Shown here: positions 39,487 through 47,676 of the stretch, piece after piece | How the letters are laid out: each line of letters opens with the position of its first letter | How positions within the stretch are numbered: position 1 is the first letter of the stretch | Assembly: GCA_021159105.1 (NCBI GenBank) | Contig: JAGGSM010000064.1 | Location: 1-49,800 of the forward strand | DNA length: 49,800 bases | Direction: 5' to 3' | Origin: Candidatus Bipolaricaulota bacterium | GTDB taxonomy: Bacteria; Bipolaricaulota; Bipolaricaulia; UBA7950; UBA9294 | The notes under the pieces: model-generated | Seen by the model: the letters and a program-made list of their open reading frames with translations, nothing else | What the model was told of the DNA's origin: nothing | Databases searched by the model: none | Program-made: the position numbers and the translations under genes

Positions 39487-39670
39487 GCATCTACTAAGAG
39501 CAAACCGCCCGAAAGGGCGGGACGCAAAGCTACGGACCTTCTGGACAACGCTCGCAAGGAGCATTGTGTAAAGGGCAAACCGGGAGCGATCCCGGGACGC
39601 AAAGCCACGGGTCTCATTGAGACAGCCGGGTTGCCGCAAGCAGTCTGATGGTGGCCGAGTTGCTGGATGC
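39487..39670 (+). promoter_or_regulatory. c-di-GMP-I (GEMM-I) riboswitch, outer aptamer of a nested tandem, copy 1
   Basis: 5' half GCAAACC-GCCC-GAAA-GGGC-GGGACGCAAAGCUACGGACC (39500-39538). 3' half GAUGGUGGCCGAGUUGCU (39647-39664). Closing helix GCAUCUA/UGGAUGC. Encloses the inner aptamer. Confidence 0.62.
39573..39635 (+). promoter_or_regulatory. c-di-GMP-I (GEMM-I) riboswitch, inner complete aptamer, copy 1
   Basis: GGGCAAACC GGGA-GCGA-UCCC GGGACGCAAAGCC ACGG GUCUC-AUU-GAGAC AGCCGGGUUGCC. Matches the GEMM-I core (GCAAAC, GNRA hairpin, GGACGCAAAGCC, GCCGGGUUnCC) as recalled from Vc2/RF01051. Confidence 0.85.
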
Positions 39671-40317: not shown

Positions 40318-40346
40318 GTCTAAAAGTATCCGTTTCAAGGTATACT
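40318..40346 (+). promoter_or_regulatory. shared promoter-like motif, copy 2 (GTCTAAA-N16-TATACT)
   Basis: GTCTAAAAGTATCCGTTTCAAGGTATACTATAAGTG. Same 23-nt register as copy 1. Confidence 0.5.
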
Positions 40347-40499
40347 ATAAGTGTAGGTCATTGACAAGTGAACCGAGAGGAAAAGGAAGATGGATTGTCG
40401 AAAGGCGAGCAGACTGAGAAGCAGCTCGCCTGACGGCATGAGAAGGATCGAAAGATTGCAGTGGACGGTCCACTGCAAGTACTAGATATCCTCGGAGAA

Positions 40500-40688
40500 G
40501 CATCTACTAAAAGCAAACCGCCTGAAAGGGTGGGACGCAAAGCTACGGACCTTCTAGACAACGCTCGCAAGGGCATTGTGTACAAGGGCAAACCGGGAGC
40601 GATCCCGGGACGCAAAGCCACGGGCCTCTTGTATCAGAGGCAGCCGGGTTGCCGCAGGCAGTCTAATGGTGGCCGAGTCGCTAGATGC
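40500..40688 (+). promoter_or_regulatory. c-di-GMP-I riboswitch, outer aptamer of nested tandem, copy 2
   Basis: GCAAACC-GCCU-GAAA-GGGU-GGGACGCAAAGCUACGGACC (40513-40551), then AAUGGUGGCCGAGUCGCU (40665-40682). Closing helix GCAUCUA/UAGAUGC is 7 Watson-Crick bp. Confidence 0.62.
40586..40653 (+). promoter_or_regulatory. c-di-GMP-I riboswitch, inner complete aptamer, copy 2
   Basis: GGGCAAACC GGGA-GCGA-UCCC GGGACGCAAAGCC ACGG GCCUCU-UGUAUC-AGAGGC AGCCGGGUUGCC. The distal P3 helix differs from copy 1 but stays complementary. Confidence 0.85.
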
Positions 40689-40717
40689 ACTCAAAAAACC
40701 ATTGGGAGGTGCTTTCA

Positions 40718-41158
40718 ATGAGGATAAACAAGTTTATGGTAGGCATGTTGGTGTTGGGTTTGGCAGTGAGCGTTCTAGGCGCAGTCGCTTTGGCGACGCC
40801 CGGACACGGGAATGGCTACCACGCTTCAGATACGGCAGTAGACAACGTCTCGTGGACGATCCAGGGGTTCATTGAACTCACGATCGATAACGGCGCGTTT
40901 GATTTTGGTGAGATCGCTGCCGGTGTGGACTCCGTGAGCGAAAGAAACGCGAATACGCTGCATGTATTCAGCAACACAGCGTGGAAGCTCTCTTACTCCG
41001 TAACTGGAGCAGGAAGCGATCACCTGAGTGTGGCCATGTCTTCAGACGAAGGTGAAGGTAACGACGACATAACCGTCGGCTACAGCTTGAATAACCTTCG
41101 AATGATGCATCCTGATACGTACACGGCAACAGTCGTCTACACCGTCGCTGCCAAGTGA
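40718..41158 (+). CDS. small secreted beta-sandwich protein, WxL-like/pilin-like (paralog 2)
   Basis: 146 aa from ATG 40718 (GGGAGGTG RBS), plus a signal peptide. Motifs are IELTIDNGAFDFGEIA, VFSNTAWKLSYS and PDTYTATVVYTVAAK. Confidence 0.8.
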   Translation: MRINKFMVGMLVLGLAVSVLGAVALATPGHGNGYHASDTAVDNVSWTIQGFIELTIDNGAFDFGEIAAGVDSVSERNANTLHVFSNTAWKLSYSVTGAGSDHLSVAMSSDEGEGNDDITVGYSLNNLRMMHPDTYTATVVYTVAAK

Positions 41159-41169
41159 TAACTAAACCG

Positions 41170-41197
41170 CCCGGGGACCGAGCAATCGGTCCCCGGG
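41170..41197 (+). terminator. hairpin terminator after paralog 2
   Basis: CCCGGGGACCGA-GCAA-TCGGTCCCCGGG, a 12-bp stem with a GNRA loop. The following T-tract is weak. Confidence 0.55.
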
Positions 41198-42632: not shown

Positions 42633-43958
42633 TCAACCCGGATCATCTTCGCCAGCAGGCTGTATGCTGCTCAGGATATCCTTCAAACTAGGTGCTTCCT
42701 GCCCATTCCAACCGTCAGCTCTGACAGATATGGTGAAGTCAAGGCCCATCTCCGCATTGAGATTGGCCACTTGATCGCTCAGTCGCTTTGAGGCCACCTG
42801 TGCTCCGGCAAGCGGTGTCTCCGGCAGCAGCGCCACGAACCGTTGCTCGCTCACACGAAATACTGGATCAACCGATCGGAGCTTCGCAATGAGGAGGTTC
42901 GCTGTCGCCTGCAGGAGACGTTTCTTATTCTCTTCAGAGGTTCCCTCGCCCGGAGATATGTCTACGATCAGGACCGAAGTTGGATGCCCGTAGCGTGCTC
43001 CCTTCTTCAACTCCTGATCAAGGAGCCTTTGGAAGTAGGAGAACGTGTAAGTGCCCGTCTCTTCGTCGAGCATAACTACGTCCCGCAGTGCCTGTTCGCG
43101 CGATCCGATCACCTTTATCATCAGGTTGAAGACATCGATGAACCGCGCCATCTCGTCACGTACCTTCAGCCCTGCTTGCCTGACCGGCCCAGTCGATACC
43201 TGCACACCGTAGTTCCTCTGTGAGACACTCTCCGCCGCTGCTGCCAGCCTAAGGATCGGCCGGGTGACGATGAGGCTCACGATCCCGTAGATGAGGAAGC
43301 CGAGAACGAGGAATCCGATAACAGATGCCAGCCCAAGCTCTAGTGAGAGGTGATTGACGTAGCGTTGCTGTTCGGCAAGGGACATGTCCACCGAGACTAC
43401 CCCGACCAGATCTGCATCCATGAATAGAGGATAGTCTGCGCGCAGGTATGCTTCTCCCCCTACCCGAACCTGCCTTACCCGCACATCCCGCAGGGCGAGC
43501 AAGGCGCCCTGCGCTTCTTGTGAAAGGATCTTGCCAATCAGTGACGAGTCCGTGCTAGCGACAACTCGCAGCCCCCTGCCGGTCACTCCGCTGACCGTTA
43601 TGCCGACGATAGAGTCGTATCGTGTCATCAGGGTATTGATGTCTTGTTCCAGTTGGTCGGAGTAGTACAGTATATATGCCTTCTCCTGAAGCGACTTGGA
43701 GACGACGCTTGCCACGCTGCGGGCACGCTGCTCGTAGATCCCAGCGATGGTGGTGTGAAGCGATGTGAGCGACAACCAGGCTAGGATGCCGATAACTGAG
43801 AGTGTGATCACGAAGACAGGAACAAGAATCTTGATCTTCAGGGGGGATCGATAGTAGATGTTCGATGACAGGGTCATCAAGCCTCTCTTCAACCGGTGCT
43901 TGATCCTTGCCAGGTATCCCTGCTCTTCCGCTCTCTTGTCCTCAACATTCTCGGACAT
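42633..43958 (-). CDS. membrane sensor protein: extracytoplasmic domain, HAMP, degenerate GGDEF domain with intact RxxD I-site
   Basis: Two TM segments flank a domain of about 150 aa, followed by HAMP-like RPILRLAAAAESVSQ...FIDVFNLMI. The GGDEF position reads SEQRF, and RSVD lies exactly 5 residues upstream (KLRSVDPVFRVSEQRF, nt 42837-42878). DxLT...NRR is replaced by DEETGTYTFSYF. Start at ATG 43956-43958 behind GGAGGG. Confidence 0.8.
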   Translation of the reverse strand: MSENVEDKRAEEQGYLARIKHRLKRGLMTLSSNIYYRSPLKIKILVPVFVITLSVIGILAWLSLTSLHTTIAGIYEQRARSVASVVSKSLQEKAYILYYSDQLEQDINTLMTRYDSIVGITVSGVTGRGLRVVASTDSSLIGKILSQEAQGALLALRDVRVRQVRVGGEAYLRADYPLFMDADLVGVVSVDMSLAEQQRYVNHLSLELGLASVIGFLVLGFLIYGIVSLIVTRPILRLAAAAESVSQRNYGVQVSTGPVRQAGLKVRDEMARFIDVFNLMIKVIGSREQALRDVVMLDEETGTYTFSYFQRLLDQELKKGARYGHPTSVLIVDISPGEGTSEENKKRLLQATANLLIAKLRSVDPVFRVSEQRFVALLPETPLAGAQVASKRLSDQVANLNAEMGLDFTISVRADGWNGQEAPSLKDILSSIQPAGEDDPG

Positions 43959-43972
43959 TGCTACCAACCCTC

Positions 43973-46450
43973 CTATTGAGCCATCAATCCTTGCTGCACC
44001 ATGAACTGCCTGGCAGCCGCCGCTGGATCGCTGTGTAATAACCGTACCCTACTTACCAGGGAATGTACATTATCCGATGTGAGAAGGGGGCGAAGCTCCT
44101 CTTCAATAGCTCGCACTCCAGGGTGTGCATCGATCACGCTCTGGCGCGTGAAGAAGGTTATCTGCCGGGCAGTCAATGCTCCCTGATCATCGTTGAGTGC
44201 CTGGTATCCCACAATCGTAACTGCCTCTTGCAAGCTATGTACAATCGCTGCATCGACTGTCCCCAACTTCAGTGCGGTCTCTGACTCATCGATCCCGTTG
44301 GTCCAGACTACGTTATCCTCTTCGAGTGTTATCCCATATGTCGATGCGAGTGCTGCAACGCTGGCATGAGGGATCTCCCGCTCTACAGCTAGCTTCACGC
44401 TTCTCTGATCACCTGTGAGGTAGATGGCCAGGTTGGAGATTGTCGTTCCAGATAGATGGGTAGCTATCTCCGGGGATACGACAAGCAGGAGCGTATCTTC
44501 TGCTGGAAGAAGGCTGGAGGCGCTTATCCCTGTGTCCGATAGCTCTTTCACATCGAACAGATCGGCCTTCCCAACAGCGACATCGATATCGCCAGCGATG
44601 AGGGCATCCTTCACCTGTTCCTCGCTTTCGAGTCCGATTAGGTCGATCACTCTCATCCCCTCACTCGTTAATCCGAGCTGGAGGAGGCGAGCGATCATGA
44701 CTTGGTCGAGGGAGCTCGTTGCACCGAGGGCAACCGATGCCTTCCAAGACGACCTGGGGAGCACGACCTGGCCTACAATGCGGGAAGGGTCCTCTTCTTC
44801 TGCGCCGTTCCAGTAGTTTCCTTCCGCATAGATTGTCCTATCCGATGAGTTTGATATGTCGTATCTCTTGTTGCCGGAGAAGGAGTTCTTAGCTAGCGTA
44901 AGGGAGAAGCCCTGTTCCGCCCCGGCCAGAAGTTCGGAGTCGCTTCCTCGCAAGATCGTCTCTTGCTTGTCCAGTTTTGAGGAGATCTCCAGCCCAGTGG
45001 AGTTGTATGAGATAGTATTGCCTTCAAGCCTTGTGCCGGTCCCGGACTCGAACAGCCTTAGGGCAATCTCGCTGTGGCTGATGCGGTTGTCCAGAAGTGC
45101 GGTCTGTGATGAAGAGGCGATCAGTACTCCGACCTTGTTGTCCTTGAGAGTGTTGTCTTGAATGTGATTCTTGTCGGCATGATTGAGCAGACACAAGCCC
45201 TGTTCCGAGCTATTGGTCATGCTATTGCGCAGCAGTTGGTTATCGCTTGCTCCAATCAATGCCACTGCGTATGCGCTCCCAGCAGTGACATTGTCGAGGA
45301 GCAGATTCCGCGACCCGGCTGACAAGACAATTCCCGCCAGTGCGTTCTCCTTAAGCGAGTTGCGTAATACCCTATTTCTCGCACCTTCCAGGATCTGGAG
45401 CCCGATCGCGTTCTTCTCCAGGTCATTGGCAAGGATCAGGCTCGACTTAACCCCTTCCAGTGTGAGGGCTGTGCCTTGGCACGTGCTGACGAAGTTGTGC
45501 GTAATGCTGTTATCTTGGCACGCAGAGAGCGAAATCCCATCCCTGAGGCCGTCTTGCACGCTGTTTTCGGATATGGCGTTCTGTGGTGACTTGTACAGTG
45601 AGATCGCGTACTTGGCGCTCCTCCTGATTGAGTTATGCTCTATCCTGTTGTTGGAGGCAGTGTTCAGCAGAATGCCGGTTGCGCAGTCGGTGAACCTGCC
45701 CCCTGTAATGAGGTTCGAAGAGGAACTAAGAATCTCCAGACCGATTTCGCTGCAACTGATCGCGGTAAGCGTGGCGATCTCGTTCTCTTGTGAATCGTCT
45801 TCGATCGAGACTCCGACCCCAACCCCGTCCACGCTGATATCCTCGATCGTGTTGGACCAGGCGGAGGAGAGACGTACGCCAACTGCCGCGTCCTTTCCGA
45901 TGTGGATTTGCTGCAGCCTGTTTCGATTGGCGCTCATCATCTCTATTCCCGTCTTGCATCCGCCGATGACGATCGAGGTGATCACGCTACCGTTGGATTC
46001 GCTCGCCTGTATCCCGACGCGCGCTCCTTCGATAACAAGATCATCAAGACTGGCATTGACTGAGTGCAGCAATTGCACCCCGATGCCGTCTGCTTCGATC
46101 CTGAAACCACGTAACTCGATCCCCGTGGCATGAATTGTCACTGCCGGCTCACCGGTGGGACAGACAATCTTGGCTCGCCCGCCGGACGATATGATCGTTA
46201 CATTTGAAGCATCGATATGAATTGGCCCTTCGTACGGACCGCCTCTCGCTTGAACGACAATCGTCGAACCACCGGCGACTTGATCCAGAGCCGCTTGGAT
46301 CGTCGGGTAGTCCCTCGGCACGACTATCTGTGAAGAAGGAGCAGGTCTACTGACCAAGAAAAACCATGTAAGGGCGCAGGCCGCAAGGACTGCTACTCCT
46401 CCAATTCCCAGCACAAAGTGCCAACTTCCAGGCAGTTTCCTTGACCTCAT
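43973..46450 (-). CDS. membrane-anchored parallel beta-helix (NosD/PbH1-like) repeat protein fused to a C-terminal OpuAC-like solute-binding domain
   Basis: 825 aa with an N-terminal TM segment. About 20 repeats of roughly 22 aa (N..I..N.I....GI.L) span residues about 45-545. The last 255 aa or so (nt 43976 to about 44749) resemble glycine-betaine-type periplasmic binding domains (ALIAGDIDVAVG..., TVDAAIVHS...). Confidence 0.78.
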   Translation of the reverse strand: MRSRKLPGSWHFVLGIGGVAVLAACALTWFFLVSRPAPSSQIVVPRDYPTIQAALDQVAGGSTIVVQARGGPYEGPIHIDASNVTIISSGGRAKIVCPTGEPAVTIHATGIELRGFRIEADGIGVQLLHSVNASLDDLVIEGARVGIQASESNGSVITSIVIGGCKTGIEMMSANRNRLQQIHIGKDAAVGVRLSSAWSNTIEDISVDGVGVGVSIEDDSQENEIATLTAISCSEIGLEILSSSSNLITGGRFTDCATGILLNTASNNRIEHNSIRRSAKYAISLYKSPQNAISENSVQDGLRDGISLSACQDNSITHNFVSTCQGTALTLEGVKSSLILANDLEKNAIGLQILEGARNRVLRNSLKENALAGIVLSAGSRNLLLDNVTAGSAYAVALIGASDNQLLRNSMTNSSEQGLCLLNHADKNHIQDNTLKDNKVGVLIASSSQTALLDNRISHSEIALRLFESGTGTRLEGNTISYNSTGLEISSKLDKQETILRGSDSELLAGAEQGFSLTLAKNSFSGNKRYDISNSSDRTIYAEGNYWNGAEEEDPSRIVGQVVLPRSSWKASVALGATSSLDQVMIARLLQLGLTSEGMRVIDLIGLESEEQVKDALIAGDIDVAVGKADLFDVKELSDTGISASSLLPAEDTLLLVVSPEIATHLSGTTISNLAIYLTGDQRSVKLAVEREIPHASVAALASTYGITLEEDNVVWTNGIDESETALKLGTVDAAIVHSLQEAVTIVGYQALNDDQGALTARQITFFTRQSVIDAHPGVRAIEEELRPLLTSDNVHSLVSRVRLLHSDPAAAARQFMVQQGLMAQ

Positions 46451-47502: not shown

Positions 47503-47676
47503 AGCATTGAAGGGCAACCCGCACGAAAGGGCGGGGCGCAAAGCTACGGCCTGCAAAGGTATGGACGAAAGGGCAAACCGGGAGCGATCCCGGGGCGCAA
47601 AGCCTTGAGTCTTCTTTTATTAGAAGATCGTCAGGCTGCCGTGGCGTACCTAATGGTGGCAGAGCTACAAGATGCT
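47503..47676 (+). promoter_or_regulatory. c-di-GMP-I riboswitch, outer aptamer of nested tandem, copy 3 (divergent)
   Basis: GGGCAACCC-GCAC-GAAA-GGGC-GGGGCGCAAAGCUACGGCC (47511-47551), then AAUGGUGGCAGAGCUAC (47652-47668). Closing helix is AGCAUU/GAUGCU. Confidence 0.55.
47571..47640 (+). promoter_or_regulatory. c-di-GMP-I riboswitch, inner complete aptamer, copy 3
   Basis: GGGCAAACC GGGA-GCGA-UCCC GGGGCGCAAAGCC UUGA GUCUUCU-UUUAUU-AGAAGAU CGUCAGGCUGCC. Confidence 0.8.

Follow-up and report, generated by a model that had tools for sequence, protein, structure and literature searches.

Known riboswitches contain a single aptamer, neighbouring aptamers placed side by side, or a pseudo-symmetric fold with two sites. 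The element considered here is an mRNA leader at positions 40500-40688 of a stretch of 49,800 nucleotides (nt) from a Candidatus Bipolaricaulota bacterium (assembly GCA_021159105.1, contig JAGGSM010000064.1), the whole of which is termed the window. With the cyclic di-guanosine monophosphate (c-di-GMP) riboswitch class c-di-GMP-I, or GEMM-I (RF01051, clan CL00126; Vc2 of Vibrio cholerae), it shares the junction, the sequence blocks, the GNRA loop, the bulged A and the nucleotides A47 and C92. It differs from a single GEMM-I aptamer in that one aptamer replaces the tip of the P3 helix of another, and in that position 20 of the outer aptamer is A. From the sequence and its relatives, we consider it probable, at roughly 0.7, that 40500-40688 is a nested dual-aptamer c-di-GMP-I riboswitch, in which two sites act through one shared expression platform to turn translation on. 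The same nested layout is found at 39487-39670 (copy 1) and 47504-47675 (copy 3), and 40500-40688 is referred to as copy 2. Features lie on the forward strand unless stated otherwise.

Leaders with several aptamers of the same class have been described as side-by-side tandems, of which 347 doublets and 12 triplets are reported for c-di-GMP-I riboswitches (Sherlock et al., 2022; PMC9481103); Bc3-5 of Bacillus thuringiensis is a triple tandem of this class (PMC4759541). A sharper dose-response is expected of such tandems, as it is here, but they consist of consecutive units with multiple expression platforms. In copy 2, by contrast, the strands of outer P3 enclose the inner aptamer, and a single platform sequesters the Shine-Dalgarno (SD) sequence, with no terminator. 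The 2022 survey treats c-di-GMP-I tandems under multiple expression platforms only, and the word 'nested' is absent from it (PMC9481103). The glycine riboswitch likewise joins two domains of one class to one platform, the arrangement also found in copy 2, and in both the folding of one domain would be expected to favour that of the other. However, glycine aptamers stand side by side and couple by tertiary docking, whereas the coupling here would use a shared continuous helix, the P3 extension on inner P1, and concerns another ligand class. GEMM-Ib, or cyclic AMP-GMP (c-AMP-GMP), riboswitches of Geobacter and relatives also carry A20 within a GEMM-I fold; here, in contrast, A20 is located in the outer shell of a nested pair, the orthologs mostly have G20, and no cyclic GMP-AMP (cGAMP) synthase signature was found in this genome. 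No earlier report of a complete aptamer nested in the stem of a same-class aptamer, with one platform, was found in the searchable literature; neither a nested natural riboswitch nor riboswitches in this phylum appeared in the full-text literature searched, subscription journals being outside its scope.

Nested architecture and its conservation

Copy 2 is an outer GEMM-I aptamer with one complete inner c-di-GMP-I aptamer at its P3 tip. Outer P1 pairs GCAUCUA (40500-40506) with UAGAUGC (40682-40688), in the hand-built fold as in the family alignment, and its 5' strand can alternatively pair with the 3' part of the SD sequence (40707-40712). A40512 is the equivalent of Vc2 G20 (column 13 of alignment A3, described below). 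The outer P2 hairpin (40513-40538) is closed by G-C and C-G pairs (40513-14/40537-38) and capped by a GAAA tetraloop (40524-27), with the A47 equivalent, A40539, next to it. The 5' strand of outer P3 (40541-40551, A40545 bulged) has its partner at 40668-40679. This helix has no terminal loop: it runs through an extension of five base pairs (bp), UAGAC (40555-40559) with GUCUA (40661-40665), into a three-way junction that bears a small accessory GNRA hairpin (GCUC-GCAA-GGGC, 40563-40574) and the complete inner aptamer (40576-40657). The 3' strands of the P3 extension and outer P3, followed by G40680 and the C92 equivalent C40681, occupy 40661-40681, and bases 40662-40669 are able to pair instead with 40699-40706.

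The inner aptamer has its P1 at 40576-80/40653-57 and its equivalents of G20, A47 and C92 at G40587, A40614 and C40652; it passes the curated Rfam cut-offs of both RF03167 (63.6 bits against 59, match 40578-40657) and RF01051 (71.4 bits against 35). Its flanks, laid out by hand, give the second GEMM-I fold. Both shells show the three-helix junction, the GCAAAC and GACGCAAAGC blocks, the GNRA loop on P2 and the bulged A in P3, and 59 of the 60 pairs proposed for the nested fold of copy 2 are standard.

The accessory hairpin is missing from copy 3 and from Acetothermia-type leaders; elsewhere it is 89-97% paired, with double changes. The original prediction had extended it outwards by an ACAA/UUGU stem (40558-61/40576-79). 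The sequence it gave for 40558-40579 is present, but the outer stem shares bases with the P3 extension (40558-59) and inner P1 (40576-79) and competes with both. Across leaders this stem is 77% paired with some covariation, which is partly explained by the two competing helices, and it was dropped from the bound fold. It is retained as a possible competing helix, which could serve as a toggle passing inner occupancy to outer P3.

Relatives were sought with a pattern of two closely spaced GEMM-I 5' halves in a collection of 185,579 species genomes. Among the matches listed, the true nested cases all came from Bipolaricaulota/Acetothermia-type genomes, some with other NCBI labels being the same contigs as genomes of the window's GTDB phylum, and the clostridial matches were tandems of the ordinary side-by-side kind. 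With copies 1 and 2 as the basis of a covariance model, nested leaders scored 75-230 bits and side-by-side tandems 64 bits or less; when 151 genomes from the phylum were sampled, about 48, belonging to eight families, had a match of nested size.

Alignment A3 comprises 52 leaders (50 distinct) from this one phylum (Bipolaricaulota/Acetothermia). Standard pairs fill 95.7% of its pair cells, compared with 31-40% when partners are slid, and 39 of the 60 pairs show double changes, values reached by none of 500 shuffles; A3 was, however, fitted to its own covariance model, and relatedness inflates the shuffle statistics. Pairing was therefore counted again on an independent MAFFT alignment of 24 diverse leaders (A6), for just the helices that define nesting, namely outer P1, outer P3, the P3 extension and inner P1. 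On A6 the paired share of cells is 90.8%, compared with 26-41% for slid partners, and 11 of 27 pairs are doubly changed (0/500 shuffles). Taken helix by helix, outer P1 is 96% paired on A3 and 99% on A6, with covariation at its fourth pair (UA 30, CG 18), and outer P3 is 93% and 90% paired, respectively. For the P3 extension the values are 92% (A3) and 88% (A6), with double changes in all five pairs. On A3, outer P2 is 98-100% paired, with double changes in five of six stem pairs, and inner P1 is 96% paired, with covariation in three of five. The claim that copy 2 has the nested architecture of copy 1 is thus strongly backed by 50 distinct homologs.

Several congeneric leaders (L109:3482-5694, L128:475-1746 and L042:1331-2579) have about 40-80 nt inserted at the inner P3 tip, in which GGGUUC or AGUUCAU-like motifs recur; their aptamer cores are unchanged.

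Pocket nucleotides and ligands of the two aptamers

The A47 equivalent is conserved in 52/52 outer and 52/52 inner aptamers, and the C92 equivalent in 51/52 and 52/52, respectively. Position 20 is G in 48/52 inner aptamers; in the outer ones it is G in 44, A in seven and a gap in one (n = 52). The seven with A are copies 1 and 2 of the window and five relatives from two separate families (L028, L042, L109, L128 and L143), and A was never seen at this position in inner aptamers. In the outer aptamer of copy 2, the positions equivalent to 20, 47 and 92 read A40512, A40539 and C40681. In four leaders (L138, L140, L142 and L144), inner position 20 (A3 column 135; AAAC-GCAAACC) is C and not G, with A47 and C92 intact; these variants may recognise a different ligand.

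The outer A20 of copies 1 and 2 leaves room for an alternative in which the outer aptamer senses another cyclic dinucleotide, namely the 3'3'-cGAMP of GEMM-Ib, or binds promiscuously, while the inner one senses c-di-GMP, the leader integrating two signals. Sherlock et al. (2022; PMC9481103) describe this nucleotide change as common in c-di-GMP-I variants responsive to c-AMP-GMP, and A40512 has the A typical of GEMM-Ib. Against this, the 91%-complete genome gave no sign of a host source of 3'3'-cGAMP, whether a Hypr GGDEF or a DncV-like cyclase. Four GGDEF domains are intact in it, which at the position that we take, after PleD/GacA, to be the Hypr position read E, E, Q and D, with no Ser; a search for SMODS-type cyclases likewise gave no match, an absence that in a 91%-complete genome is not proof. 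Orthologous outer aptamers mostly keep G20, and Vc2 G20A mutants retain c-di-GMP binding. On balance, a leader of this two-signal kind appears quite unlikely. The same genome encodes six HD-GYP-type (HD_5) domains, which with the four GGDEF domains count in favour of the c-di-GMP riboswitch reading. A search of the 91%-complete assembly for EAL domains found none; c-di-GMP may be broken down there by HD-GYP enzymes alone.

Alternatively, the inner aptamer alone might bind ligand, the outer shell being a degenerate former aptamer that now provides scaffold and expression platform. At the curated cut-off Rfam detects just the inner aptamer, outer position 20 is not G in copy 2, and the bulge in the 3' strand of outer P3 is GG where the consensus has AG. 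Nevertheless, outer A47, C92, the GCAAAC and GACGCAAAGC blocks and the GNRA loop are kept in essentially all 52 leaders across the phylum, and the outer-type P3 (ACGGACC...GGUGGCCG), with the same GGUGGCC feature, is common to stand-alone aptamers of the phylum, which pass Rfam. In addition, an inner-less relative, L159 (G040:C20:205002-205112, minus strand), has the outer P1, P2, P3 and linker sequences of copy 2 with a plain GC-rich hairpin as P3 tip, and in Rfam it matches over the entire aptamer, at 59.1 bits (cut-off 59). A purely structural outer shell is accordingly judged distinctly improbable. L159 also suggests that the nested form arose by insertion at the P3 tip, or the L159 form by loss.

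Clan competition in Rfam labels the inner aptamers (40578-40657, 39565-39639 and 47563-47644) as c-di-GMP-I-GGC (RF03167), to whose consensus the inner P3 sequence is nearly identical. That consensus has G at the A47 position (GACGCGAA, the G after GACGC), whereas A is found there in every inner and outer aptamer of the 52 leaders; by that nucleotide they are therefore of the standard type and not the GGC variant, GGC in the variant name presumably denoting positions 20, 47 and 92. Automatic annotation would mislabel the inner aptamers and overlook the outer ones.

Competing fold, translational control and differences between copies

The expression platform (40689-40717) contains ACUC (40689-92), CCAUUGGG (40699-40706) and the SD sequence GGGAGGU (40704-40710). 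Upstream of the aptamers, the 5' flank AUCCUC (40488-40493) is complementary to GAGGAU (40720-40725), that is, the last base of the start codon and codons 2-3. Ligand-free folding of the full leader (40484-40730) gave a minimum-free-energy fold that differs from the nested one (z = -6.4) and sequesters the ribosome site. Its pairings are AUCCUC with GAGGAU; GAAGCAUCU (40497-505, including the P1 5' strand) with AGGUGCUUUC (40707-16); UCUAAUGG (40662-69, taken from the 3' side of the P3 extension and P3) with CCAUUGGG; and GAGU (40675-78) with ACUC. The bases of GGGAGGU are paired in the ligand-free ensemble with a probability of 0.64-1.0, about the same as in copies 1 and 3, and the sequestered form is the minimum-free-energy fold of all three window leaders.

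This competing fold is itself conserved. Across 48 leaders it is 87.8% paired, compared with 42-62% for slid partners, with double changes in 10 of 27 pairs. The AUCCUC/GAGGAU helix is 91% paired, its outermost pair being AU in 22, CG in 6, UA in 5, GU and UG in 4 each and GC in 1; the pairing of the outer P1 5' strand with the 3' part of the SD sequence reaches 89%, and the pairing of 40662-40669 (helices 3-4) 90-96%. Divergent leaders keep the sequestering fold with other sequences, for example GCCUAUUGGUGG against CCACCAAUAGGC in L037. Duplexes were stabler with own than with swapped partners, at -23.6 versus -19.9 and -14.9 versus -13.4 kcal/mol (permutation p < 1e-4, inflated by relatedness). 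One nested leader (L145:1501-1676) lacks the ACCAUUAGGAGG-AUG platform that is usual elsewhere; the 80 nt downstream of it are rich in C and contain inverted repeats, and it may use a different expression platform.

The bases of outer P1 and outer P3 are the sequestering strands, so that aptamer folding and sequestration exclude each other. One of these mutually exclusive folds buries the SD sequence, no terminator-like site was found between the aptamer and the start codon, and 40500-40718 contains no terminator-like hairpin with a U-tract. From this we infer that the leader switches translation ON and does so only with both aptamers folded. An OFF switch, or an action on transcription or RNA stability, has in its favour that AUCCUC/GAGGAU over the start codon could be preferred once P1 joins both ends, and that both polarities are known among c-di-GMP-I riboswitches. 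The mutual exclusion of the folds and the lack of a terminator-like hairpin argue against it, as does the typical induction of fibre and adhesin genes at high c-di-GMP, and we hold it to be very unlikely.

For the ON switch, the following course is proposed. In the absence of ligand, the 5' flank and the outer P1 5' strand would pair with the 3' half of the SD sequence and the start-codon region, and the 3' strand of the P3 extension and outer P3 with the SD 5' half, burying the ribosome site. Ligand binding to the inner aptamer would lock inner P1 and the P3 extension stacked upon it, binding to the outer aptamer would lock P3 and P1, and the two events together would draw the sequestering strands off and free the ribosome site. 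High c-di-GMP would then turn on translation of a secreted fibre-like protein, with a two-site and probably sharper response. Transcription completes the inner aptamer, and lets it fold, while the outer one is still unable to close, so sensing is probably sequential. Going further, the leader could be a natural RNA logic or cooperativity device, in which the inner aptamer must bind first to build the helix that the outer one needs, the outer site with A20 in copies 1 and 2 responds either to a further signal, cGAMP or some other dinucleotide, or to c-di-GMP at another threshold, and ACAA (40558-61) with UUGU (40576-79) is the toggle. We regard this as speculative and rather unlikely; if true, one leader would compute a sequential two-step or two-signal decision by strand exchange at a three-way junction.

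Several points weigh against reading copy 2 as a nested two-site ON switch, beginning with the self-fitting of A3 and the relatedness of its members given above. De novo prediction by RNAalifold (MAFFT, 24 leaders) found neither outer P3 nor the P3 extension nor inner P1; what it did return was outer P1, both P2 hairpins and inner P3. Taken alone, the outer aptamer of copy 2 falls below the Rfam cut-off, with a match to its 5' half only (40502-40558, 34.0 against 35 bits); the model misses it as a whole because an insert of roughly 115 nt cannot be spanned. Tetraloops cap both P2 hairpins (GAAA in the outer, GCGA at 40599-602 in the inner), and a search of either P3 for the canonical 11-nt tetraloop receptor, including the surroundings of CCUAAUGG, gave no convincing match, which for the outer GAAA loop is a point of the same kind. 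The A20 of the outer aptamer in copies 1 and 2 could mean a changed or relaxed ligand choice or affinity. Nearest-neighbour energies are -68 kcal/mol for the nested fold versus -102 for the sequestered one, so that the decision probably rests on energy from tertiary contacts and ligand, and on the order of events during transcription. Finally, the AUCCUC/GAGGAU helix could persist in the bound state. As for the alternative that RNAalifold gave to outer P3, a local 3' hairpin and a CGG/CCG pairing without covariation, it was rejected, since the nested helices covary on the same alignment.

Copies 1 and 2 were also read and aligned against each other. They are mutual nearest relatives, with 93% identity (91-92% for congeneric orthologs), and differ by twelve substitutions, nine of them in real pairs. 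The original prediction had listed five changes from copy 1 to copy 2 as keeping the helices intact, and all five are present where it placed them, with the helices kept. In outer P2, CCGCCC/GGGCGG becomes CCGCCU/GGGUGG (40518-23/40528-33) by two independent C-to-U events, each turning a C-G pair into a wobble pair. The closing helix, which is outer P1, changes from GCAUCUA/UGGAUGC to GCAUCUA/UAGAUGC, with U.G replaced by U-A at 40505/40683. In the P3 extension, UGGAC/GUCUG becomes UAGAC/GUCUA, two wobble pairs turning Watson-Crick; C40554, which had been counted as paired in this helix, is not. The change in distal inner P3, U-A to C-G at 40625/40640 with a stem one pair longer in copy 2, is the sole true compensatory double change between the copies, the listed changes being mostly one-sided switches between wobble and Watson-Crick pairs. 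Left out of the list were a U-to-C at 40679, which turns an A-U pair into A40541.C40679 and does not preserve the helix, an A-to-G at 40657 (inner P1, U-A to U.G), a G-to-A at 40511 in a joining region, and seven indel columns. Position 40541/40679 is not a conserved pair, because across the family it is A-U in only 21 of 50 leaders and unpaired in 28 of 50.

Comparison of helix compatibility with chance had been named as the test of the claim. It was run as a simulation in which nine random transitions were dropped on paired positions and broken pairs counted; one broken pair or fewer arose with p = 0.06, or p = 0.014 when 40541/40679 was set aside. The excess of substitutions in paired columns was not significant (binomial test, p = 0.33). 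The assessment 'supportive but weak', made on account of the close relationship of the paralogs, holds at this identity and with p of only about 0.01-0.06, and the two-copy evidence for helix preservation is real but weak. That the helices were preserved by chance, the long-range ones not being real, might be thought from so close a pair of paralogs (p = 0.06 with 40541/40679 counted), from changes that are mostly transitions at or into wobble pairs and often pairing-neutral by chance, and from the RNAalifold result, but it is largely refuted by 50 distinct homologs, in which outer P1, P3, the P3 extension and inner P1 all carry double changes whichever of the two alignments is used, by shuffles that never reach the observed values and by slid controls at 26-41% paired.

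Regulated gene and biological meaning

The regulated gene (40718-41158) encodes a secreted protein of 146 amino acids with a signal peptide and an immunoglobulin-like beta-sandwich. Searches of the regulated proteins against Pfam gave no family above cut-off, and the 60 homologs of the 146-residue protein are all unnamed. Its AlphaFold2 model is a confident beta-sandwich (mean predicted local distance difference test, pLDDT, 81.7). Foldseek returned no match to the model at E = 1e-3 or better, the best, weak matches (E about 5e-3 or worse) being donor-strand fibre subunits, namely TasA-like TLP-1a, Caf1, the PapG pilin domain and CfaB. The protein is probably a fibre or pilin-like subunit. Genes 3' of nearly all nested leaders start with MR(I/M)NK... 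or MKRL..., followed by a hydrophobic signal-like sequence.

Upstream of copy 2, a promoter-like block (GTCTAAAA ... TATACT, 40318-40350), common to copy 1, is the probable transcription start of the unit, and a scan with the sigma-70 consensus gave no plus-strand site at 40318-40350. Between this block and the riboswitch lies a leader hairpin (UGCAGUGG-ACGGU-CCACUGCA, 40457-40477). A GC-rich hairpin of 12 bp just past the stop codon (41170-41197), whose tail is only moderately U-rich on the plus strand, is a possible terminator that would make the unit monocistronic. On the minus strand, between the riboswitch-controlled units, 42633-43967 encodes a Cache-GGDEF protein with SEQRF as its GGDEF motif and the upstream substrate-binding motifs lost, which is probably not an active cyclase. 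Beside the fibre-gene island, 43973-46450 (minus strand) encodes an 825-residue protein in which a right-handed beta-helix (Beta_helix/NosD) is joined to a C-terminal OpuAC-type substrate-binding domain, an unusual fusion.

If the nested reading is true, the leader represents a new RNA-only coupling of two binding events, by a shared helix and not by tertiary docking. Annotation by covariance models would be systematically blind to the outer partner, Rfam counting one aptamer of two. The architecture would also offer engineers of two-input or digital RNA switches a natural scaffold of small size. For the uncultured phylum Bipolaricaulota, it would link c-di-GMP signalling to a family of secreted fibre-like proteins.

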